Source of the DNA: an uncultured Candidatus Saccharibacteria bacterium
GTDB lineage: Bacteria > Patescibacteriota > Minisyncoccia > Phycocordibacterales > CAIZLB01
DNA: 63,650 nucleotides
Reading direction: 5' to 3'
Assembly: GCA_964627085.1 (NCBI GenBank)
Contig: CAZVIP010000001.1
Span: forward strand, 104,114 to 167,763
Part shown: positions 16,658 through 26,852 of the stretch, in pieces
How the letters are laid out: each line of letters starts with the position of its first letter
Position numbering within the stretch: the first letter of the stretch is position 1
Notes under the pieces: model-generated
What the model saw: the letters and a program-made list of their open reading frames with translations, nothing else
Database searches by the model: none
What the model was told of the DNA's origin: nothing
Made by a program: the position numbers and the translations under genes

Positions 16658-16894
16658 ATGTATATATTTGTACTATATTAGTACAAATCTAGCCTGTCAA
16701 TCTAAATATCTATTTAAATAATGTGCGATAATTGGCTCTCTCAACCACTGATACTAGTACAAATTAGCGACTTTTCAGAGACAAGAACCCGCCCTAGCCA
16801 TATATTGAATACAGAAAGAGCACATACAGCAAGTTCTTTTGTAAACAATGCTGAATACACCAAACAAAAAACACAGGACGAAGTCCATAACAAT

Positions 16895-17887
16895 ATGAAA
16901 AAAAACACTTTAACCACAAAAACCCTCGACGCTGAAGTCATCGGGAGGTTGGCCCAAAAAATGGAAGACATGGTGAGAAAAGCTATCAGTATCATCCAGG
17001 CCAATGCTCACAATGTGAATCCGGTTTGGAAGCTTGGCTATAACCAAAATGCCGGCGATATACCAGATGACTTTGCTACACAGGGCGACTTTGAAGCCCA
17101 GGAAATGTATCACAGTGAGATAGTTGGTGACCCGCTCTGCGCAGGTTTTGGAATTTTGGGTGAGGAATCACTCAATGTGCCATGCACGCATCAGGATCAC
17201 GATGTCTATTTCACTATCGATCCACTCGATGGCACTAAGGCCTATTGGCGCAAACAGTCGCACGGTGTAGGGACGATGATTGCCTTGGTGGTAAACGATA
17301 TTGTCGTTGCTGTGTGCATTGGCGATGCAAATACAGGTGAAATATACTGTTATGCTATTGACCCGCTGCACCCCAGTGCATATATCGTTCCGCCGACTCG
17401 CATCAGATTCGGTGTGCGCGAAGCGCTTGTCCCTGAGGTGGAAACTGTCTTAGGTTGCAAGTATCTGCATTCGAGAGAGCCTTTGCACAAAATCAGTCCT
17501 GTTATTACAGGTATGGTATGTGGCAAAGGTGATGCGCCGATCTTGTTCAAGGACATTGCGGTTGACGGTGGAAGTATTGGAATTTGTGTTGCCAAGCTCT
17601 GGAAGGGTGAGGTCGGTGCAATTGCCATGCAGACATCTACGCATGAGACACCGTGGGACAGGACTCCGGTAATTGGTATGAATGAAGCCCTTGGTTATCT
17701 GACATTACGCACAGATGAAAACGGTCGCTTCACCCAGTTTGTGCAAAGTCCACAAAAGTATGTCATCAAGAATGCTTTGGGCAGCGGTCACGAGAGCGTG
17801 GATTTGATTATTCACAAGGATAATATCCCACAGCTCAATAGTTGGCTTGCAAGTTGTCAGATGCCGGAGATTAAACTCCTGGCGTAG
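16895..17887 (+). CDS. inositol-monophosphatase / CysQ-family phosphatase (candidate 3'-phosphoadenosine-5'-phosphate phosphatase)
   Basis: Metal-binding motifs ILGEES, FTIDPLDGTKAY and ETPWDRTP (WD motif). The start is an internal ATG preceded by an A-rich region; the upstream part of ORF 16721.. has no coding features. Confidence 0.65.
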   Translation: MKKNTLTTKTLDAEVIGRLAQKMEDMVRKAISIIQANAHNVNPVWKLGYNQNAGDIPDDFATQGDFEAQEMYHSEIVGDPLCAGFGILGEESLNVPCTHQDHDVYFTIDPLDGTKAYWRKQSHGVGTMIALVVNDIVVAVCIGDANTGEIYCYAIDPLHPSAYIVPPTRIRFGVREALVPEVETVLGCKYLHSREPLHKISPVITGMVCGKGDAPILFKDIAVDGGSIGICVAKLWKGEVGAIAMQTSTHETPWDRTPVIGMNEALGYLTLRTDENGRFTQFVQSPQKYVIKNALGSGHESVDLIIHKDNIPQLNSWLASCQMPEIKLLA

Positions 17888-17992
17888 GGCTCTTTGTAAG
17901 AAAAATATGTCTAGAACATATATTCAAAATTAATCCACCTGCCTCTGTTACGGAGGCGGGTGTTTTGTTTGTCATAGTGAGGTATTGCCTAT

Positions 17993-18826
17993 ATGATAAA
18001 GGTATATATGGAAAAGAAGTTTTACTTTGTCTCTGGTTTGCCTCGAAGCGGATCAACCTTGCTTATGAATATACTCGCTCAGAACCCACGTTTTGGTGTG
18101 AGTGCTACGAGCGGAATTATGGATATCATGTTTGGTGTCCGAAATAACTGGGATTCCTTGGTTGAATTCAAGGCGCATCCAGATGAGGCTGCAAAAAAAC
18201 GTGTCATCAAGGGTATTTTGGAGAATTATTATGCGACAAGTGACAAACCGGTTGTGTTCGACAAGTCGAGAGGTTGGCTCTCTTTGATCCAAATGTATGA
18301 GTATATTTTTGAAAAAGAGGCCAAAATAATTGTACCTGTGCGTGATATGAGAGATGTGGTCGCGAGTTTCGAAAAACTCTGGAGAGCAAATTCAATGAAT
18401 ACTCAAATACCACAGGAGTCACAGTTTTATTTCGATTTTCAATCTGTCGAGGGGAGGGTAAAAGTGTGGTTACGTCCCGATCAACCTGTTGGGCTTGCAT
18501 ACAATAGAATTGTTGATGCGATTAAGCGGGGTTTTTCAGATAGATTGTTTTTTGTTCGATTCGAAGATTTGACCACTAAACCAAAGGAAACGATGGAGAA
18601 AATATATGCTTTTTTGGATGAGCCAGATTTTGAACATGACTTTAATACTGTAAAGCAGGTGACATGGGAAGATGATGAGGTGCACGGAATCAAAGGTTTG
18701 CATGATATTCGCCAAAAAGTTGAGCCAATCGAATCAAGTTGGAAAAAAACTCTTGGTCCGTTTGCGAAAGATATTGGCAATTTAAACTTTTGGGATACTG
18801 GCAATAGTCCAAATGGAATTTCTTGA
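17993..18826 (+). CDS. PAPS-dependent sulfotransferase-family protein
   Basis: FVSGLPRSGSTLL matches the 5'-PSB loop and IIVPVRDMRDVVASF matches the 3'-PB region. Size is about 275 aa. Confidence 0.7.
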   Translation: MIKVYMEKKFYFVSGLPRSGSTLLMNILAQNPRFGVSATSGIMDIMFGVRNNWDSLVEFKAHPDEAAKKRVIKGILENYYATSDKPVVFDKSRGWLSLIQMYEYIFEKEAKIIVPVRDMRDVVASFEKLWRANSMNTQIPQESQFYFDFQSVEGRVKVWLRPDQPVGLAYNRIVDAIKRGFSDRLFFVRFEDLTTKPKETMEKIYAFLDEPDFEHDFNTVKQVTWEDDEVHGIKGLHDIRQKVEPIESSWKKTLGPFAKDIGNLNFWDTGNSPNGIS

Positions 18827-18925: not shown

Positions 18926-19462
18926 ATGCCTGAATACAACGAACAAGTAGTTAAACGATCTTCAAAAAAATCTTGGTTAAAGATCTTTATTATATTACTC
19001 ATCACTCACCTTGCTGTGGGTTTTGGTGGGTGGAAAATCGGAAGTGATGCAAAGAAAGTTCAAGTCACAGGACTCGTCACAGAGTTAAGTGCAAAAGACG
19101 TCGCTGCGTACGTAAAAAAAGTTTCTGCTCTAATGGCTGTACCTAAATCAGAGACACCAAAAGTTGTGGTGCTCAACAATGTAGACGAAATCGCAAAACA
19201 ACAACCATTTTTTATTGGGGCAAAAAATGGAGATGTTTTCCTTGTCTACAACGAGAGCAAGAAGGCGATAATATACCGACCAAGCGAAAATTTGATAATT
19301 AATGTCGGTCCGGTGTATGGAGAGCCTGAAAAAAAGCAACCCGAGCAAGTACAGAATAGTACAACTCCTCCAGCTCAGGATAATGACAGTGCAAGTACAA
19401 ACACAGGCTCTGAACAGAAAAAAACAACCGAAGCCACTTCTACAAAATCAATAAAAAATTAG
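18926..19462 (+). CDS. membrane-anchored hypothetical protein
   Basis: N-terminal TM (WLKIFIILLITHLAVGFGGW) and a Ser/Thr/Gln-rich C-terminus. The next gene starts 2 nt after its stop. Confidence 0.5.
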   Translation: MPEYNEQVVKRSSKKSWLKIFIILLITHLAVGFGGWKIGSDAKKVQVTGLVTELSAKDVAAYVKKVSALMAVPKSETPKVVVLNNVDEIAKQQPFFIGAKNGDVFLVYNESKKAIIYRPSENLIINVGPVYGEPEKKQPEQVQNSTTPPAQDNDSASTNTGSEQKKTTEATSTKSIKN

Positions 19463-19463
19463 C

Positions 19464-20366
19464 ATGTCGCACAGAACCAAAAAATACACCTCTGTAATAC
19501 TTATGCTGTTTTTTGGTTTTTTGATTTTGTCTTCACCTAGACTCGGAGTGGCACAGAGTGTTTCTGGTGCCGTGTACTCACTTGAGGGTGGTATTGTGTA
19601 TCAGGCAGGGGATCTGTCTGGTTCTACATACTCACTTTCAGGATCAGGTGATGCTGTTGTGGGTTCTACTGTTGGCGGAACTTTCTCTCAAAATCAAGGA
19701 GAGTTTGGAGGAGGTGCGTCTGCGCCAGGTGGGGTAATTCCTGTGTCATCGACGGGTAATTCTAGTGGTGTAGGGTATTCGATCTCGGCAGGTGGTGGCA
19801 ACTTGGTTATTGACGCATACTCTTACTATAAAAAGGATTTAACTTTGATTATTACATTCAGTAATCCAAGAGACGCGGGATCAATTGTGTTGGTAGGTCA
19901 GGCAGATTTGAGTCCGTTTAATCTCACTGCAATTAACCAAAATACTTTTCTTGTGAGATTTAATAATGTGGCACAAGGTGTATATACCCTTGGACTTGGG
20001 AAGCCAGCTCATACTGTTGGTGCACCCCTCGCACTATATTCAATTTCTGTAAATCAAGAAGGTAATGGGGTTGTTGGTGGTCCTGACTCTGTTATAGATA
20101 CAGGTGGCCAAGTACGGGTCAGTGAAAACCCTGTCCAAAACACCGGGACTACGAGTGGTGTTCAAAATAACACCAGTGTTAAACCATCGGAGACTCGCGC
20201 AGTTGACATTAATCCCGTTGCAACAACTGCAACTACAATCAAATCAGGTACTGTCTGCCATTTATTTGGAATCAAATGTGCTTACTTGCCACCGATTTAT
20301 ATACTTATAGTCTGTATAATTGGTTATCTGATGCATAAATTTGTTATATCTCGAGAGAAAGCATAA
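19464..20366 (+). CDS. secreted, C-terminally anchored surface protein
   Basis: Signal peptide (VILMLFFGFLILSSPRLGVAQS), a Gly/Ser-rich region and a C-terminal TM (PPIYILIVCIIGYLM). Confidence 0.5.
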   Translation: MSHRTKKYTSVILMLFFGFLILSSPRLGVAQSVSGAVYSLEGGIVYQAGDLSGSTYSLSGSGDAVVGSTVGGTFSQNQGEFGGGASAPGGVIPVSSTGNSSGVGYSISAGGGNLVIDAYSYYKKDLTLIITFSNPRDAGSIVLVGQADLSPFNLTAINQNTFLVRFNNVAQGVYTLGLGKPAHTVGAPLALYSISVNQEGNGVVGGPDSVIDTGGQVRVSENPVQNTGTTSGVQNNTSVKPSETRAVDINPVATTATTIKSGTVCHLFGIKCAYLPPIYILIVCIIGYLMHKFVISREKA

Positions 20367-20494: not shown

Positions 20495-23400
20495 ATGTCA
20501 AAACACAATAAAAAAATCATAAAAATAGTCTCTTTTTTCATTGTGCTTTCGTTTACATTTCTCACAACCACGGCTCAAGCAGCTGTTCCAACACAATCAA
20601 TTGCATTCCATGGTCAACTCACAGCTTCTGGATCTGTGGTTTCTGGATCAAAGTCAATCATATTCCAATTCTACGATGCTTCATCTGGCGGATCTGCCGT
20701 CGGCTCTGCTATTTCAAAAACAACAACTGTTACTAGTGGATATTTCAGTGTAGTTTTCAGTGCCTCAGATCTTTCTAGTGTCGATCTGAATCAAGCTCTC
20801 TGGATTGGTGTCACTGTCGAAGGGGATGTACTTTCTCCGCGTCTTTCGATTAATTCTGTTCCATCTTCTATAAATACTTTTGGAGTTTTTTCATACGCAT
20901 CTGCACCAGCTGTCGGTTCGGCGGGTGCGCTTTATTACAATACCGGTGATTCAAAAACCTATGTATCAAATGGTGCTGCATGGATTGAACTTGGCGGAAG
21001 TCAGTGGACAACAACTGGTTCTGATGTGTATTACAACACCGGAAATGTCGGTATTGGTACCACAACACCAGGGTCAAAACTCGTCGTCGCAGGACAAATT
21101 ACAACTGACGGCCTCGTCAGTCTTTCAACAACAGCGACTTCAACATTTGCAGGCCCTGTCACTCTCGCGAGTCATTGTATCGCAGCAGAGACAAGATTCA
21201 GAAGAAGAAAGAAGGATCAAGACGGTGAAGTCGAAGAGGTCGACCTTGAAGCCCTCGAGATCGGAGACTATGTTGAATCATTCGATGAAACAACTCAAAC
21301 AGTTGTATTCAAGAAGATCGAAAACATTTTTGTTATGGGTATCAAATCAATCATCAAGATTGATACACAAAAAGGATACAGTATTAAAACAACTGAAGAG
21401 CATCCATACTATGTGACAATAGGAGAAGGGGAAAAAGGTCAGTGGGTCAAAGTGAAGGATATATCAGTTGGTGACGGTATTGCAGTTATTGACTCTGCCA
21501 ACCGAACAGTGTTCTTTGATATTGTCACTACAATCTCAAACCTTCCCGAAGAAGAAGTGTATGACCTTGAAATCGAAGGTACACATACATTCATCGCAAA
21601 CAACATTGTTGCACACAATACATATGTACAAGGTGGTCTTGGTGTCGGAGTACTCAACACTTCAGCAGGAACTTTTGCATTGAAACAAGCAACAACCAAT
21701 GCTGTTATCTTGGGTGATGTGTCAGGAAATACGAGAGGAAGTTATGCGCTTGATTTGCAGACGAGGAGATCTGTTGTAAATCAGATAGCCTTTGGAGCGT
21801 GTTCTACTGCGGTTGGAAATGACAATTGTGCATCTGGTTGTCGTTCTGCTTCTTTGGGTTGGGGTAATGCAGCAACAGGGATTTCATCTTTGGCAGCTGG
21901 TAGTAATAACACTGCTTCTGGTATAGATTCTTCCGCTGTGGGTTCCGGCAACTCTGCTTCGGCTAATTTTTCTTCTGCATTTGGTTGTAATAACTATGCC
22001 ATTGCTAGTTGTTCTACGGCATTAGGACTTAGAAATCAGGCTTGCGGTGTTAATTCTACTGCAGTGGGTAGTGTTATTGTCGCTTCTGGTGCGTGTTCTG
22101 TGGCAGTAGGGAATGATAATTGTGCATCTGGTGGTCGTTCTTCAGTTTTTGGTTCTCAAAACACTGCCTCTGGCTACCGTTCTTCGGCTTTTGGATCAAG
22201 TATAATTAACTCGACTGCAAACTCAGTTGAAATTGGAGCCTCAAACACAGAAAAACTCCAAATCTCATCTGCTGGAGTCAACTTTGTCACCGCAGGTGCT
22301 GGTGGGTTCTGTGTAAATGGTGTTGCGATGGGTGGTGATGTAAATAATCTTTGCTCAATTCAGGTTGGTTACTCTAACACTGCTTTTGGTAATAGTTCAT
22401 CTGCTGTAGGTTTTTGTAATAATGCAGCGGCTGTCTACTCTTCCGCTCTTGGTTATTTCAACACTGCATCAGGTTATTATTCAACCTCTGTTGGTCATCT
22501 CAACACTGCGTCTGCATGTTGTTCGTCTGCTCTAGGATCCTGCAACATGGCTTCTGCTAGTGGGTCAACTGCTGTGGGCCAACGAAATACCTCTTCTGTT
22601 ATGAGTTCTTCTGCTTTTGGCTTCGGTAATACTGCATCTGGTTACTATTCTTCTGCAATTGGTTTTAGTAATTGTACTTCTTGTACGGGTTCTACTGCAG
22701 TAGGTTATTGCAATACTGTGTCCAATTATTCTTCTTCAGCTTTTGGATCAAATATAACTAACCCAACTGCGTGTTCTGTTGAAATCGGAGCCTCAAACAC
22801 AGAAAAACTCCAAATCTCATCTGCTGGAGTCAACTTTGTCACCGCAGGTGCTGGTGGGTTCTGTGTAAATGGTGTTGCAGTAGGCGGAGGGAGTGGGGAT
22901 GTAAACGCACTCTCGGTTGTTGCTGTTGGATGTGGTAACAGTTCCTCAGGTACTTACTCTTCTGCTTTTGGAATTAGTAATTCCGCTTCAGGAAACTGCT
23001 CTTCTGCTTTTGGATATGCTAATACCGCTTCAGGATACCGCTCTTCTGCGTTCGGATCAAGTATAAATAACCCAACTGCGTGTTCTGTTGAAATCGGAGC
23101 CTCAAACACAGAAAAACTCCAAATCTCATCTGCTGGAGTCAACTTTGTCACCGCAGGTGCTGGTGGGTTCTGTATAAACGGCTCATTGGTCGGTGGTTGT
23201 TCAAATCCTAACGGACTATCACTTGTTGCTGTTGGATGTGGTAATACGGCATCTGCATACTACAGGTCTTCAGCATTTGGTATATGTAACTCTGCATCGG
23301 CGTGTTTCTCAACTGCAGTTGGTTCAAATATTACCAACTCAGCATCGTATTCTGTTGAAATCGGAGCCTCAAACACAGAAAAACTCCAAATCTCATCTGC

Positions 23401-24940
23401 TGGAGTCAACTTTGTCACCGCAGGTGCTGGTGGGTTCTGTGTAAATGGTGTTGCAGTAGGCGGAGGTGACGTGAATGCACTTTCTACGATTCAGGTTGGT
23501 TGTGCAAATACTGCTTCAGGTTATAGGTCTTCTGCTTTAGGGTACATGAACTGTGTGACAGAAGGCTTTTCGACGGCCTCAGGGTATTACAATGTTGTTT
23601 CAGGTGGAAGCTCGGTTGCGGTTGGAAATTTTAACTGCTCAACCTCTCTTAGTTCGCTTTCAGTAGGTCTTTCAAATACTGCATCAGCACAGTACTCTTC
23701 TAGTGTAGGTATTCAGAATCTGGCTTCAAATCAAGGCTCAGTGGCTTTTGGGTACTGCAACACTGCTTCAGGTTATTGTTCCTCTGCTGTCGGTAATACA
23801 AATACTGTTTCTGGTGGTGGAGCAAGTGGATTCGGTTATGGTAATACTGTCCCAGGTTACCGAGCGACTGCTTCAGGTTATTCAAATACTGCATCTGGTC
23901 AATATTCTGCAGCTTTTGGTTTTTCTAATCAGGCAAATTGTGATAGTTCACTTGTCTTTGGTAAGTGCTTAATAAATGATATTGCCGCTTCGACAATGGT
24001 TGGGCAGGCAGGTGGTTGGATAAGTTTATTGGCTAACGGTGAAATAAATACTTCATCCGGTGCCAGTCTTACATCTGGAGGAACTTGGACAAATGCATCT
24101 GACAGAAATCTCAAGGAAAACTTTGTTGAATTAGACAAAGAAGACATACTTACAAAAATCAACTCACTTCCACTTACAAAATGGAATTACAAGACTGAAG
24201 ATTCTTCTATAATGCATATAGGGCCTATGGCACAAGATTTCTATGCCACATTTGGTCTTGGTGGATCTGATAAGTCTGTATCAACTATTGATCCTGCAGG
24301 TGTTGCGCTTGTTGGTGTGCAGGCGTTGTCAGGAAAAGTTGATAATCTATATGTAGAATTGGGTCTACTTGCGACAAGTACTGATTCAAATTCGAACCAA
24401 GGTGGAATTATCAGTTGGATTAAAGCGCTCGGGGCAACTGTGGTTGATGGTGTTGCACACTTTGTAAATGTTGTTGTTGGAAAGATTACAGCTTCTGATC
24501 TTACAATCAAAAATGAAACTGATGTTCACAAGACTGGTTATGTGATTTATGACCGAGCGACAGGTGCACCACTTTGTGTTTTCTTTGAAAATGGAATTCA
24601 GAAAACTGAACCAGGTGAATGTGATGACTTACCTGTACCTCCTCAGCAAAATACTGGAGGTACTCCAGCGGGTGATACTAGTAGTACCGGTGACACCTCA
24701 AATGCAAGCAGTACAGATTCTGGCGGATCAGGATCAGATACACCATCACCAGGTGGTGATATAGGAGGCGGGGTGACTGATAATCAATCTGATACAGGCT
24801 CTACTCCGGCAGGTGATTCAGCTCCAACGGGCTCATCTGGATCAGATACGCCAACTGTAAATGACCCTGATCCGACACCTGAGCCTACGCCTGCTCCAGC
24901 ACCGGAACTAGGGCCCGCCCCGGCTCCTTCTACTGAATAA
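20495..24940 (+). CDS. 1481-aa secreted adhesin / tail-fibre-like protein: signal peptide, fibre N-domain, inserted Hint (intein/BIL) domain, YadA-head-like SxAxGxxNxAxG repeats, peptidase-S74 intramolecular chaperone domain and a Pro/Thr/Ser/Gly-rich tail
   Basis: Signal peptide MSKHNKKIIKIVSFFIVLSFTFLTTTAQA, NTGNVGIGTTTPGSKLVVAG fibre motif, dozens of 14-residue SSAFG..N.ASG..S repeats, and the SDRNLKENF...HIGPMAQDF S74 signature. Confidence 0.85.
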   Translation: MSKHNKKIIKIVSFFIVLSFTFLTTTAQAAVPTQSIAFHGQLTASGSVVSGSKSIIFQFYDASSGGSAVGSAISKTTTVTSGYFSVVFSASDLSSVDLNQALWIGVTVEGDVLSPRLSINSVPSSINTFGVFSYASAPAVGSAGALYYNTGDSKTYVSNGAAWIELGGSQWTTTGSDVYYNTGNVGIGTTTPGSKLVVAGQITTDGLVSLSTTATSTFAGPVTLASHCIAAETRFRRRKKDQDGEVEEVDLEALEIGDYVESFDETTQTVVFKKIENIFVMGIKSIIKIDTQKGYSIKTTEEHPYYVTIGEGEKGQWVKVKDISVGDGIAVIDSANRTVFFDIVTTISNLPEEEVYDLEIEGTHTFIANNIVAHNTYVQGGLGVGVLNTSAGTFALKQATTNAVILGDVSGNTRGSYALDLQTRRSVVNQIAFGACSTAVGNDNCASGCRSASLGWGNAATGISSLAAGSNNTASGIDSSAVGSGNSASANFSSAFGCNNYAIASCSTALGLRNQACGVNSTAVGSVIVASGACSVAVGNDNCASGGRSSVFGSQNTASGYRSSAFGSSIINSTANSVEIGASNTEKLQISSAGVNFVTAGAGGFCVNGVAMGGDVNNLCSIQVGYSNTAFGNSSSAVGFCNNAAAVYSSALGYFNTASGYYSTSVGHLNTASACCSSALGSCNMASASGSTAVGQRNTSSVMSSSAFGFGNTASGYYSSAIGFSNCTSCTGSTAVGYCNTVSNYSSSAFGSNITNPTACSVEIGASNTEKLQISSAGVNFVTAGAGGFCVNGVAVGGGSGDVNALSVVAVGCGNSSSGTYSSAFGISNSASGNCSSAFGYANTASGYRSSAFGSSINNPTACSVEIGASNTEKLQISSAGVNFVTAGAGGFCINGSLVGGCSNPNGLSLVAVGCGNTASAYYRSSAFGICNSASACFSTAVGSNITNSASYSVEIGASNTEKLQISSAGVNFVTAGAGGFCVNGVAVGGGDVNALSTIQVGCANTASGYRSSALGYMNCVTEGFSTASGYYNVVSGGSSVAVGNFNCSTSLSSLSVGLSNTASAQYSSSVGIQNLASNQGSVAFGYCNTASGYCSSAVGNTNTVSGGGASGFGYGNTVPGYRATASGYSNTASGQYSAAFGFSNQANCDSSLVFGKCLINDIAASTMVGQAGGWISLLANGEINTSSGASLTSGGTWTNASDRNLKENFVELDKEDILTKINSLPLTKWNYKTEDSSIMHIGPMAQDFYATFGLGGSDKSVSTIDPAGVALVGVQALSGKVDNLYVELGLLATSTDSNSNQGGIISWIKALGATVVDGVAHFVNVVVGKITASDLTIKNETDVHKTGYVIYDRATGAPLCVFFENGIQKTEPGECDDLPVPPQQNTGGTPAGDTSSTGDTSNASSTDSGGSGSDTPSPGGDIGGGVTDNQSDTGSTPAGDSAPTGSSGSDTPTVNDPDPTPEPTPAPAPELGPAPAPSTE
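21176..21619 (+). mobile_element. 148-aa mini-intein / bacterial intein-like (Hint) domain inside the adhesin ORF
   Basis: It starts at Cys228 (ASH|CIAAETRF, block A). Block B is KTTEEHPYY (TxxH), block F is VYDLEIEGTHTFIANN and block G is IVAHN|T, with Thr as the +1 residue. There is no endonuclease domain. Confidence 0.8.
22226..23456 (+). repeat. four near-identical in-frame direct repeats of about 100 bp within the adhesin gene
   Basis: Copies lie at about 22226-22327, 22778-22880, 23087-23181 and 23354-23456. Each reads gttgaaatYggagcctcaaacacagaaaaactccaaatctcatctgctggagtcaactttgtcaccgcaggtgctggtgggttctgt... and encodes SVEIGASNTEKLQISSAGVNFVTAGAGGFC.NG. There are only 1-3 differences between copies. 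Confidence 0.9.
24098..24350 (+). other. peptidase S74 (endosialidase-type intramolecular chaperone, self-cleaving) domain
   Basis: S1202-D-R-N-L-K-E-N-F..LTKWNYK..HIGPMAQDF..GVALVGVQAL matches the sDerlKenI...hiGfiAQe consensus as I remember it. Confidence 0.7.
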
Positions 24941-25015: not shown

Positions 25016-25930
25016 TTAGTTGTTCAGCTTCTTAACAATGTCATTTGTATCGAAAATCACGTCATCACTAAATGGGTGTTCTGACCATATACCAGCAATA
25101 TTGTATGCATCTAGATATGCATCCGGTGAATGTCTGAATTCTATTTTCTCAGGATTCTTTTCAAATGCTTCTATGTGAGTATGTATTTCATATCCAAATA
25201 CTTTTGGGCTATTTGTCACCCAAACAACCACAGCGGGCAGTGCAAGGGCTCCGGCGACATGTGCAGCGAGTGAATCGACGAATAGTCTCTTTGTTGAAAA
25301 CTGAATTGCGCACATTGCTTCTCGGATACTAAATTCAATCCAGGTGGTGTTCGGGAGTGCGATCTGGTCTTTTCTTCGAATGTGAATAGTTCGGTAGCCA
25401 AGGTTGTTCATTTTGTCTACAACTTCTTCTGCTGTTTTCAAAGGTAAATCACGTGCCCATGATATGGGATAAGGCTGATTTGTGGCACCTCCGGAAGGCT
25501 GGATAAAAAATAACGGCTTTTTCTTTTCGATCTCAGTTTGAGCGGTGTCTGAGATTTTTTTGAGGACAGAAATATTTTCTTCACCTGTAAAATATAGTTT
25601 TGGTTGTTTTGTGGTGCAGGGCACTCCACATAATTTACACCAGGTCTCGATGACATGTTCACGTCGATAGAGGAAATCTTCGTCGTTGTATGGATCAAAG
25701 AAAAAGAGTGTCACGTCTCTTTTATACATATAATTTTCAAAGAAACCAGCATCTTTTGAGATATCAACTATTTTCGAGATATTTGGATTATTGACCCAGA
25801 TATCTATCCAAGGAGTAGTGATGACAATATCAGATTTTGGGTATTTGGCCTTGATTGATTCAATGACAGCAGTCGCTGCAATGTTTTTTCCCGCCCCTCC
25901 AGATATATTAAAAATAATTGTATGTGTCAT
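25016..25930 (-). CDS. glycosyltransferase family 9 (heptosyltransferase-like)
   Basis: N-terminus IIFNISGGAGKNIAATAVIESIKAKYP and C-terminus LFVDSLAAHVAGALALPAVVVWVTNSP match the GT9 patterns (iDSgp.HlAaA.g.P.V.lfG.t.p). Confidence 0.6.
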   Translation of the reverse strand: MTHTIIFNISGGAGKNIAATAVIESIKAKYPKSDIVITTPWIDIWVNNPNISKIVDISKDAGFFENYMYKRDVTLFFFDPYNDEDFLYRREHVIETWCKLCGVPCTTKQPKLYFTGEENISVLKKISDTAQTEIEKKKPLFFIQPSGGATNQPYPISWARDLPLKTAEEVVDKMNNLGYRTIHIRRKDQIALPNTTWIEFSIREAMCAIQFSTKRLFVDSLAAHVAGALALPAVVVWVTNSPKVFGYEIHTHIEAFEKNPEKIEFRHSPDAYLDAYNIAGIWSEHPFSDDVIFDTNDIVKKLNN

Positions 25931-25934
25931 GGGT

Positions 25935-26852
25935 TTATTTTTTATTACTGTGTGTTGATATTGAGATTAATTCATTACAGATTGCTTTTGCATTGTAGAG
26001 TGAATGCAGGTCAAAAGGGCAGTTGGGTATATTGCTGAAAGAAAAATCTTTGCGATTTGACTCTAGGAATTTTATTTTATCTGAGTCACCTTGAGGGGTG
26101 ATGTTTTTTTGTGATGAATATCCCCAAACGACTGGAGATTCATTGACCCAAAGTGTGACCGACTTTTTACCATGCGCAGCAGCAGCATGTGCAGAATATG
26201 AATTGATAGCAAGCAGGGTGTCACAGTACTGAATGGCGCAGAGTTTAAGGCGAAGGTTGAGATTGAGTTTACTGAGGCCTGGTATATTTGCGGTTTCAGA
26301 TATGTCTACGACAGCGAAGCTTTTTTGTGCCAGGGTTTCTACTATATTTTTGAGTAGGATTGGTGGAACTTTCTCGGCCCAGGTTGCCTGATTTTGTCCA
26401 AACTGTGCATGTCCAAATCCGTGTGCGATAGATTCTGATTCGATAAAGAATAAAGGCTTATCACTTTTTGTTAGTTTTTGGACTGCTTCTTTTTCTCGCC
26501 AAGTGAAGAAAAGTCGAGGTGTATTTGTTTTGACAGGTATCTTGTATATGTCACACCAGATCTCCTCGAGTGGTTTTTCGTTTTTGACATACTCTGTGGT
26601 CAGGGTTGGATTATGTCTGCAGATAATTGTATCGAGGCTTTTAATATAATCTTCATAAAAATATTCAAAAGCACCGATTTTGTATACTCTATATACATCA
26701 GGGTTGTGAAGCCATATTTCAGGAAAAAGAGTCACAACAACGATATTTCTATCTGGATAGGCGGATTTGAGGGAGTGGACGACTTTTGTTGCGACGAGAT
26801 TTGTCGGTATATCGAGGAGGCATTCAAATAAGAGGTATTTCTTGTTTTTCAT
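25935..26852 (-). CDS. glycosyltransferase family 9 (heptosyltransferase-like), paralog of the downstream gene
   Basis: Same length and architecture as its neighbour. C-terminus LLAINSYSAHAAAAHGKKSVTLWVNESP. There is a 4-nt gap to the next gene, so the two are probably an operon. Confidence 0.55.
   Translation of the reverse strand: MKNKKYLLFECLLDIPTNLVATKVVHSLKSAYPDRNIVVVTLFPEIWLHNPDVYRVYKIGAFEYFYEDYIKSLDTIICRHNPTLTTEYVKNEKPLEEIWCDIYKIPVKTNTPRLFFTWREKEAVQKLTKSDKPLFFIESESIAHGFGHAQFGQNQATWAEKVPPILLKNIVETLAQKSFAVVDISETANIPGLSKLNLNLRLKLCAIQYCDTLLAINSYSAHAAAAHGKKSVTLWVNESPVVWGYSSQKNITPQGDSDKIKFLESNRKDFSFSNIPNCPFDLHSLYNAKAICNELISISTHSNKK

Follow-up and report, generated by a model that had tools for sequence, protein, structure and literature searches.

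The present study concerns a 63,650-nucleotide stretch of DNA (63.6 kb, hereafter the window) from an uncultured Candidatus Saccharibacteria bacterium (contig CAZVIP010000001.1), in which a large gene for a secreted fibre-like protein carries an in-frame insert of 148 codons with the features of a Hint (Hedgehog/intein) domain. The insert is probably a functional class-1 mini-intein, that is, a descendant, lacking a nuclease and kept by vertical inheritance, of a Patescibacteria-centred intein family that resides in fibre proteins. Inteins typically occupy conserved sites of cytoplasmic enzymes of replication, repair, and nucleotide metabolism, and the Hint domains of secreted bacterial proteins are filed as bacterial intein-like (BIL) domains or pretoxin Hint domains, which cleave rather than splice. 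A complete class-1 intein, maintained by selection, in a Sec-exported fibre of the Candidate Phyla Radiation (CPR)/Patescibacteria, whose cell-surface biology is almost unknown, poses an export puzzle, because the host must cross the membrane unfolded and the intein must fold in order to leave.

The kind of element described herein, a class-1 mini-intein, is already known. The novelty seems to lie in the type of host, namely Sec-exported surface fibres of cells, in the Thr at position +1 and the polybasic strand that run through the family, and in the NYN and unannotated domains nested in the larger relatives. In full-text searches of open-access papers and bioRxiv, no paper combining "intein" with "NYN domain" was found, nor, under Patescibacteria, CPR, Parcubacteria, or tail-fibre and surface proteins, any that dealt with inteins in proteins of this kind, and a polybasic strand after block A was not found in the same literature.

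The splicing domain and its predicted fold

The insert is translated without a stop and in frame within the 1481-aa open reading frame (ORF) of the host gene (Table 1), between the junctions ...TLASH|CIAAETRF... on the N-terminal side and ...IVAHN|TYVQGG... on the C-terminal side. A first-pass annotation, made by a model from the sequence and its ORFs, had described a 148-aa insert with every splicing block, and this description was confirmed by the exact coordinates, by profile scores above the Pfam and NCBIfam cut-offs, and by the invariant residues. In the search with Hint/intein profiles which that annotation had recommended, the Pfam model Intein_splicing (PF14890) matched significantly (E 3.9e-16, 59.7 bits against a cut-off of 35.8 bits), and the NCBIfam models of the two intein termini likewise exceeded their cut-offs (intein_Nterm, TIGR01445, 28.4 against 24.5; intein_Cterm, TIGR01443, 27.2 against 15.6, within 21557..21619), with the PT-HINT and Hedgehog Hint models of Pfam far weaker on the intein than Intein_splicing. 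The best NCBIfam "equivalog" matches were the intein parts of DnaB, PolII, and RFC, and a phmmer search of the PDB returned the NpuDnaB mini-intein (4o1r) first, at E 1.4e-12, and then about 25 further inteins, whereas the BIL domain of C. thermocellum (2lwy) was matched at E 0.0079.

The residues of the splicing reaction are likewise conserved. When the window intein was aligned with 14 family relatives (alignment A1, 15 members), C1, T72, T73, H76, D130, H137, H147, N148, and the Thr at +1 were invariant. An assignment to class 3 is contradicted by the presence of Cys1, by Asp130 at position 4 of block F, and by the single Cys of the domain. The absence of a homing endonuclease, which had also been noted in the first-pass annotation, was borne out: the splicing domain is contiguous, and the slot that would hold a nuclease, G85|E86, is empty.

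The AlphaFold2 model, built on the alignment of the 15 family members, is all-beta (mean predicted local distance difference test, pLDDT, 93.1; predicted template modelling score 0.87), and its 10-residue block of lowest pLDDT (81) spans loop 82-88 around G85|E86. Foldseek returned 68 PDB matches at E<=1e-3, of which the leading ones were all inteins. The best was again NpuDnaB 4o1r (E 5e-11, TM 0.84/0.88), followed by the SspDnaB, Mtu RecA, and Pho RadA inteins, with Hedgehog (1at0) and the BIL domains lower in the list (BIL 2lwy at rank 42). A peculiarity of the domain is the basic stretch RFRRRKK directly behind block A. Inteins normally have a hydrophobic second strand at this position, which in a sister subfamily reads LLPIV; the acidic strand VEEVD comes next, at residues 19-23. 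AlphaFold2 places strands at 7-11 and 19-23, and from their positions the two would pair as a charged hairpin.

Among known systems, the cyanobacterial DnaB mini-inteins (NpuDnaB 4o1r, SspDnaB 1mi8) are thus the best match in both sequence and structure. They share the class-1 residue set, the size class (142-158 aa), the lack of an endonuclease, and a nearly identical block F/G (VFDLTVPGLHNFVANNIIVHN in the DnaB mini-intein, VYDLEIEGTHTFIANNIVAHN in the window). In contrast to the element in the window, the DnaB inteins sit at a conserved catalytic site of a cytoplasmic replicative helicase and have Ser at +1 and an ordinary hydrophobic second strand, and the identity is about 26%. A 148-aa mini-intein with a single Cys and Thr+1, set in a fibrous, beta-rich extein context, could also serve protein engineering.

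Family, insertion sites, and inheritance

An exhaustive search was needed to place the intein. A word-indexed homologue search with the intein alone returned no matches, not even the window's own protein, and an exhaustive phmmer search of 1.84 billion representatives returned 4306 matches at E<=1e-3, of which 411 reached E<=1e-10. With the full host as the query, an ortholog (P0002, at locus L001) and about 35 other very large proteins matching Intein_splicing were recovered. A total of 125 inteins in 108 proteins, these counts being those of the retrieved set that shares the junction signature, carry the N-terminal signature ...G(Q/H)|CVTGDT(R/K)LRRRR (also with L at -1) and the C-terminal signature (T)HNF(I/V)GNxIVAHN|T(Y/A). 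Thr+1 is present in all 123 junctions (of the 125) that belong to the top +1/+2 classes, mainly TY (91) and TA (20); in the wider match set, Thr+1 was observed in 181 of 232 C-terminal junctions and the HN end in 229 of 232. The hosts carry domains of extracellular type (Peptidase_S74, YadA head/stalk, PF16403, PF26696), and signal peptides were scored in 17 of 71 hosts, most entries being fragments or having uncertain starts. Where the source names the organism, the homologues belong overwhelmingly to Patescibacteria/CPR lineages.

Most family members are considerably larger than the copy in the window, with lengths mostly of 300-400 aa and of <=160 aa in only 6 of 125, and 13 hosts contain 2-4 inteins per protein. 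The additional 120-260 aa always lie in the equivalent of the G85|E86 slot. The nested inserts are of three recognisable types, namely NYN (PF01936; 38 copies, E 3e-16 to 3e-23), a "KLYRFEVD...SPAHxAA" type (14), and a "GWEH...RFFALP" type (6), and the rest are low-complexity or singleton fillers. The NYN domain is flanked by the N- and C-terminal splicing halves, for example at aa 94-245 of the 353-aa intein of P0027 (E 3e-16); its SGDSD acidic motif is kept in 36 of the 38 copies and all three acidic motifs in 28. The two unannotated types, about 190 aa each, had no significant Pfam match (the best, LPD3 at E 9e-4, was under the cut-off), and they are candidates for unrecognised endonuclease families. 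From these comparisons, the window element is thus a mini member, without a nuclease, of a family in which the full-length inteins resemble mobile inteins that carry unconventional nested nucleases, and the nested NYN and the two unannotated domains are candidate new homing nucleases. NYN is a PIN-like nuclease, and examples of inteins that bear it are found in P0027 (aa 1192-1544), P0041 (aa 463-852), P0034, and P0063; databases title these relatives "NYN domain-containing protein", an annotation that hides both the intein and the real host. The "KLYRFEVD...SPAHxAA" domain was observed in P0022, P0043, P0049, and L002, and the other unannotated type ("GWEH...RFFALP...FYSVVW") in P0033, P0004 (aa 778-1098), P0067, and P0054. 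A different arrangement from that of the window's family was seen in P0116, P0125, P0137, P0181, and P0205, in which 3-4 tandem Hint domains are joined head to tail through ...VHN|KGG(G)CF... junctions with Lys at +1 (26 junctions).

The polybasic strand is a property of the family as well. At least four consecutive Arg/Lys occupy this position in 82 of the 125 inteins, and the stretch holds up to nine Arg/Lys in relatives. It occurs in every one of the 58 inteins whose nested domain is recognisable and in 9 of 11 minis, and the members without it carry only low-complexity or singleton inserts. Two explanations might be given. The strand may belong to the nucleic-acid-binding apparatus of the nested nuclease, which is favoured because of the 58/58 association with nested domains; it would then be a relic in the window copy. 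Alternatively, the strand may impede transit of the Sec channel, with the result that folding and splicing of the intein take place in the cytoplasm. A seven-residue basic cluster is unfavourable for Sec passage, and this explanation is attractive because the nested nucleases must stay cytoplasmic and the leader of the host is not of the twin-arginine type.

The insertion sites follow a limited set of motifs. Insertion directly after GIGTTxPxxKLxVxGx was found for 45 of the 125 inteins and after a (T)STFaG-x3-9 motif for 8, the window's included, and an h-x-V-x-G-x strand stands at the N-side end of another 42. Uninterrupted sites occur in intein-less proteins (KLTVSGDTYISD in P0018, RFTVIGDTYISG in P0003, and KLSVAGNTYLGG in P0025), and the (T)STFaG-type junction motif is uninterrupted in the intein-less P0024, P0042, P0013, and P0008. 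The intein-less P0024 aligns with the spliced host at 50% identity (E 2e-31) with no gap at the junction. In P0008, P0013, P0042, P0038, and P0240, the insert is absent and the module order is the same, with a 12-18-aa deletion spanning the junction. Because intein-less relatives keep the same module order across the junction, the insert appears to be optional in this type of host, and the junction lies within a variable linker.

Comparison with the ortholog suggests how the element has been inherited. P0002 (1327 aa) has the same architecture, an intein at the same site, and syntenic upstream genes. The two inteins are identical at 93% of protein and 90% of DNA positions, with all catalytic residues the same, and the 78 N-extein residues adjoining the intein are about 95% identical. 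By the Nei-Gojobori method, the synonymous divergence (dS) is 0.51 for the intein and 0.45 for the flank, and the ratio of nonsynonymous to synonymous divergence (dN/dS) is 0.06 for the intein, 0.04-0.10 for the N-extein, and 0.215 for the first 75 C-extein codons (the linker). Since the intein and its flanks are equally diverged from the ortholog, the intein has descended vertically together with its host and shows no trace of recent homing, and the purifying selection acting on it matches in strength that on the most conserved portion of the host.

Proposed splicing and competing explanations

Splicing is the best reading that we infer for the Hint domain in the window, and the following course is proposed on the basis of established intein chemistry. 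After translation, the intein would fold into the HINT horseshoe, and Cys228 of the host (Cys1) would attack the His227-Cys228 bond, the N-S acyl shift to a thioester being aided by the Thr and His of block B and the Asp of block F. Thr376 (+1) would take over the N-extein by trans-esterification, cyclisation of Asn375 would release the intein, and an O-N shift would leave the ligated sequence ...GPVTLASH-TYVQGGLGV... in the fibre. The reaction is predicted to yield the intein (16.75 kDa) and, without its signal peptide, a fibre of 128 kDa; cleavage by S74 at Ser1202 would shorten the latter to about 100 kDa. As for its origin, the family would be centred on Patescibacteria and specialised on fibrous, exported "tail-fibre-domain" surface proteins, inserting after h-x-V-x-G-x beta-strand motifs and mostly right behind GIGTTxPxxKLxVxG; the copy in the window would now be immobile and kept under selection because the host fibre needs clean excision. 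Splicing would most likely be cytoplasmic, before or during Sec translocation, and the suggestion in the first-pass annotation that processing must be coordinated with Sec export is a reasonable one. Sequence inspection found no twin-arginine motif in the signal peptide of the host, which should therefore cross the membrane unfolded, and the nuclease-bearing relatives would have to stay cytoplasmic to reach nucleic acid.

Several points weigh against this reading. Thr at +1 is generally a poorer nucleophile than Cys or Ser, so that cleavage side-products are possible. The insert is placed in a linker of low conservation, whereas inteins usually reside in conserved catalytic sites. The first-pass annotation had suggested that homologues lacking the insert would define the extein junction, and this was achieved in part: P0024 is colinear across the junction, but no close empty-site allele (>60% identity) came to light when the N-terminal 440 aa were searched against GTDB genomes, the spliced N-part against the protein database, and the spliced junction region against Joint Genome Institute (JGI) metagenomes. 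These searches returned only relatives at <= ~50% identity or shared GIGTT modules, and the case for an optional insert rests accordingly on relatives at <=50% identity. The signal peptide was called heuristically, by eye and by hydrophobicity. The low dN/dS fits an element that is required to splice for the function of the host, and it would fit a retained structural domain too. Finally, the cytoplasmic timing is something we infer more weakly than the splicing chemistry.

The first-pass annotation had left open whether the domain splices or, in the manner of BIL domains, cleaves to generate protein variability, and the latter now stands as a minor rival to splicing. BIL domains have no +1 nucleophile, those of type A cleaving more than they splice and those of type B being without block G (PMC4031507, PMC7765530). 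The A-type (Amitai et al. 2003 and Dassa et al. 2004, as summarised in PMC4031507 and PMC7765530) resembles the window element in the Hint fold, in Cys1, in the C-terminal His-Asn, and in a variable, secreted, repeat-rich surface host. Were the domain of this kind, it would mainly cleave, freeing a 198-aa N-terminal module or making processed variants. The context in variable regions of non-conserved secreted bacterial proteins (PMC7765530) is indeed that of BILs, as the annotation had said and as the signal peptide, the fibre family, and the junction in a variable linker bear out. The score of the isolated domain against PT-HINT, 31.5 bits, is above the 27.7-bit cut-off, and the weak nucleophilicity of Thr noted above also suits a domain that cleaves. 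However, the Intein_splicing score is nearly double that of PT-HINT, and a +1 nucleophile absent by definition from BILs (PMC4031507) is present across the family, in the 123 listed junctions of 125. By both sequence and fold, the DnaB inteins match far better than the solved BIL 2lwy, the nearest solved relatives being the DnaB, RadA, and RecA inteins. Moreover, the relatives contain nested nuclease-type domains, which are typical of mobile inteins and which, to our knowledge, have not been reported for BILs. The uninterrupted relatives also show that the N-module and the repeats are normally one chain. Thus, we regard BIL-like autoprocessing as unlikely; of the two labels given in the first-pass annotation, canonical mini-intein is upheld and BIL is not supported.

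The pretoxin Hint domains offer a second comparison in secreted proteins. PT-HINT (PF07591), to which the isolated domain gives a weak to moderate match, resembles the window element in lying inside a large secreted bacterial protein, and it precedes a C-terminal toxin domain, which it is thought to release. In the window, by contrast, 1100 aa of fibre repeats plus S74 lie behind the Hint domain, the intein model scores much higher, and on the whole host protein PT-HINT reaches 25.8 bits, below its cut-off. The His-Asn end and the YadA-like repeats and S74 downstream set the element apart from type B BILs as well as from PT-HINT.

A non-enzymatic host is in itself not without precedent. The statement in the first-pass annotation that canonical inteins sit in replication and repair proteins proved too strong, as tape measure, portal, and minor capsid proteins of phages are known intein hosts (10.1101/2025.01.02.630785). 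The inteins of these phage structural proteins resemble the present family in their non-enzymatic hosts, in non-canonical endonuclease arrangements, and in some degraded minis (10.1101/2025.01.02.630785). They differ in that their hosts are assembled in the cytoplasm of the infected cell, whereas the host in the window is chromosomal, bears a signal peptide, and has a cellular neighbourhood. NYN is also not among the endonuclease types listed in the 2025 survey, which are LAGLIDADG, HNH, VSR-like, and EndoVII-like (10.1101/2025.01.02.630785).

It might also be argued that the Hint domain has been domesticated and is inert, in which case the mature fibre would retain it unprocessed, as a globular bulge or a module for interactions. 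The loss of the nuclease and the vertical inheritance are in keeping with this, the exposed Arg-rich and acidic strands could form an interaction surface, and a structural domain that had been retained would show a dN/dS of 0.06 just as readily; this alternative therefore keeps a low probability, somewhat below that of BIL-like cleavage. The catalytic set counts against it, since nothing would hold Cys1, Asn148, or Thr+1 in place if the domain were inert: the seven catalytic positions are all intact and do not differ between the two orthologues, Thr+1 has been lost in none of the 123 listed junctions (of 125), and HN persists in nearly all related C-junctions. In addition, three 17-kDa bulges would be awkward in a fibre that presumably trimerises via its S74 chaperone.

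That the window copy is still homing, by means of a nuclease provided in trans or read from another frame, is highly improbable. Phage inteins do include examples whose endonuclease is encoded out of frame or antisense (10.1101/2025.01.02.630785). The GC content at third codon positions is somewhat higher in the intein (0.365) than in the N-extein (0.286) and C-extein (0.256), a weak compositional hint of foreign origin despite the equal divergence of intein and flanks. Nevertheless, intein and flanks have diverged together from the ortholog, on which ground recent homing was rejected, and only a single Hint domain and a single GIGTTxP site exist in the 63.6-kb window. A hidden out-of-frame or antisense endonuclease was likewise rejected, as the alternative-frame ORFs across the intein gave no domain matches, and 444 nt are too short for an endonuclease.

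Returning to the splicing mini-intein, we tentatively put forward an extension of this reading, which is itself rather doubtful. The family might be adapted to export, in that the polybasic strand stalls or bars the intein at the Sec channel and cytoplasmic splicing becomes a checkpoint before the fibre is exported. The nested NYN and the two unannotated domains, held in the cytoplasm, could then be an unrecognised class of homing nuclease that targets the repeated GIGTTxPxxKLxVxG-coding motif of Patescibacteria fibre genes, and the window copy, fixed and devoid of a nuclease, would have survived as an element whose splicing is still coupled to export. For the export question, natural constructs are available within the family, whose members differ in whether they have the polybasic strand and in whether they carry a nested domain.

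The host fibre and its genomic surroundings

Table 1. Coordinates of the intein, its splicing residues, and the modules of the host gene in the window (the vertical bar marks a junction or cleavage point)
Feature	Position	Strand	Basis
Class-1 mini-intein, 148 aa, 16.75 kDa, pI 4.6	21176..21619	+	translation, profiles, alignment, model, Foldseek
Cys1 (host Cys228), block A nucleophile, sole Cys of the intein	21176..21178	+	invariant in A1, Cys count
Polybasic strand RFRRRKK, intein residues 7-13	21194..21214	+	AlphaFold2 strands, family comparison
Block B TTEEH (T72, T73, H76)	21389..21403	+	invariant in A1
Empty endonuclease slot G85|E86, loop 82-88	21428..21433	+	nested domains of 120-260 aa in relatives exactly here
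Blocks F and G, VYDLEIEGTHTFIANNIVAHN (D130, H137, H147, N148)	21557..21619	+	invariant in A1, TIGR01443
Thr+1 (host Thr376), C-extein nucleophile	21620..21622	+	translation, alignment A1
Host gene, 1481-aa precursor (148.2 kDa), secreted, fibre/adhesin-like	20495..24940	+	single long ORF, Pfam, ortholog
Predicted Sec-type signal peptide, aa 1-29 (MSKHNKKIIK n-region, hydrophobic core, AQA|A)	20495..20581	+	sequence inspection, hydrophobicity
GIGTT-type N-extein motif, aa 183-200	21041..21094	+	tblastn, insertion-site count
N-extein junction TATSTFAGPVTLASH, ending in residue -1 (His227)	21131..21175	+	translation, family sites, intein-less relatives
C-extein: variable linker, Cys-rich YadA-head-like repeats, S74 domain, P/T/S/G-rich tail	21620..24937	+	Pfam, composition
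Peptidase_S74 chaperone domain, host aa 1202-1252, S1202-DRNL-K1207	24098..24250	+	PF13884

The host matches the Pfam families Intein_splicing, YadA_head (seven stretches, E 2.9e-12), and Peptidase_S74 (PF13884; E 6.4e-11, 42.8 bits against a cut-off of 22 bits). The picture given in the first-pass annotation, a signal-peptide-bearing, repeat-rich fibre with the insert between its N-terminal module and YadA-like repeats, was upheld, the N-module being of the GIGTT type. The best 12-residue hydrophobic window of the leader has a Kyte-Doolittle value of 2.5, and the ortholog has an equivalent leader that ends in VEA|AAP. The N-extein (227 aa, no Cys) ends with the GIGTT-type module and then TTATSTFAGPVTLASH. 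The GIGTT-type motif is the most widely conserved module of this class of fibre proteins, and tblastn found it at 50-70% identity in loci of Patescibacteria, Omnitrophota, Bacteroidota, and Bdellovibrionota. The C-extein (1106 aa) holds 37 Cys, which are all of the host Cys outside the intein. Within it, the repeat region at 22226-23443 (host aa 578-982) contains four exact copies of the 29-aa unit VEIGASNTEKLQISSAGVNFVTAGAGGFC and shows large insertions and deletions relative to the ortholog.

The S74 domain forms a module of its own, 826 residues downstream of the intein, and its SDxxxK motif likens the host to the tail spikes and fibres of phages that carry the endosialidase-type chaperone (Peptidase_S74). 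The role of the Ser-Lys dyad in S74 is known from the endosialidase chaperone family. The host is thus predicted to be one polypeptide with two independent and unrelated self-processing modules, the intein and S74. About 230 residues lie beyond S74, ending in the P/T/S/G-rich tail, and the C-terminal 331 aa had no sequence match in the PDB. Only YadA_head repeats were detected by Pfam, and the YadA membrane anchor PF03895 was not found in the host; the NCBIfam match to Ata was 33 bits against a cut-off of 2500 bits. An identity as a type V autotransporter or YadA-family trimeric adhesin was ruled out by the lack of the YadA anchor. The most fitting description of the host is that of a secreted surface fibre, tail-fibre-like and probably trimeric.

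The neighbouring genes encode a DEAD-box helicase, a glycosyltransferase, a sulfotransferase, an ABC/FtsX transporter, PilM, prephenate dehydratase, and VanY, with seven scattered tRNAs and a GC content of about 40%. A phage origin of the locus was ruled out by these cellular neighbours and the scattered tRNAs, and a scan of IMG/VR returned no close family member. Downstream of the fibre gene, adjacent paralogous ORFs of 304 and 305 aa (25016-26852, minus strand) had no Pfam match even at E<=1. Directly upstream of the fibre gene cluster, genes of the inositol-monophosphatase family and for a sulfotransferase (16721-18826) were observed, and this pair may constitute a system dependent on 3'-phosphoadenosine-5'-phosphosulfate (PAPS) for the modification of a surface protein or its glycan. 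Immediately 5' of the fibre gene, two small ORFs (178 aa and 300 aa, 18926-20366) without a Pfam match, the second of which has a signal-like N-terminus and a hydrophobic C-terminus, are both syntenic in the ortholog locus L001 and may share an operon with the fibre gene.

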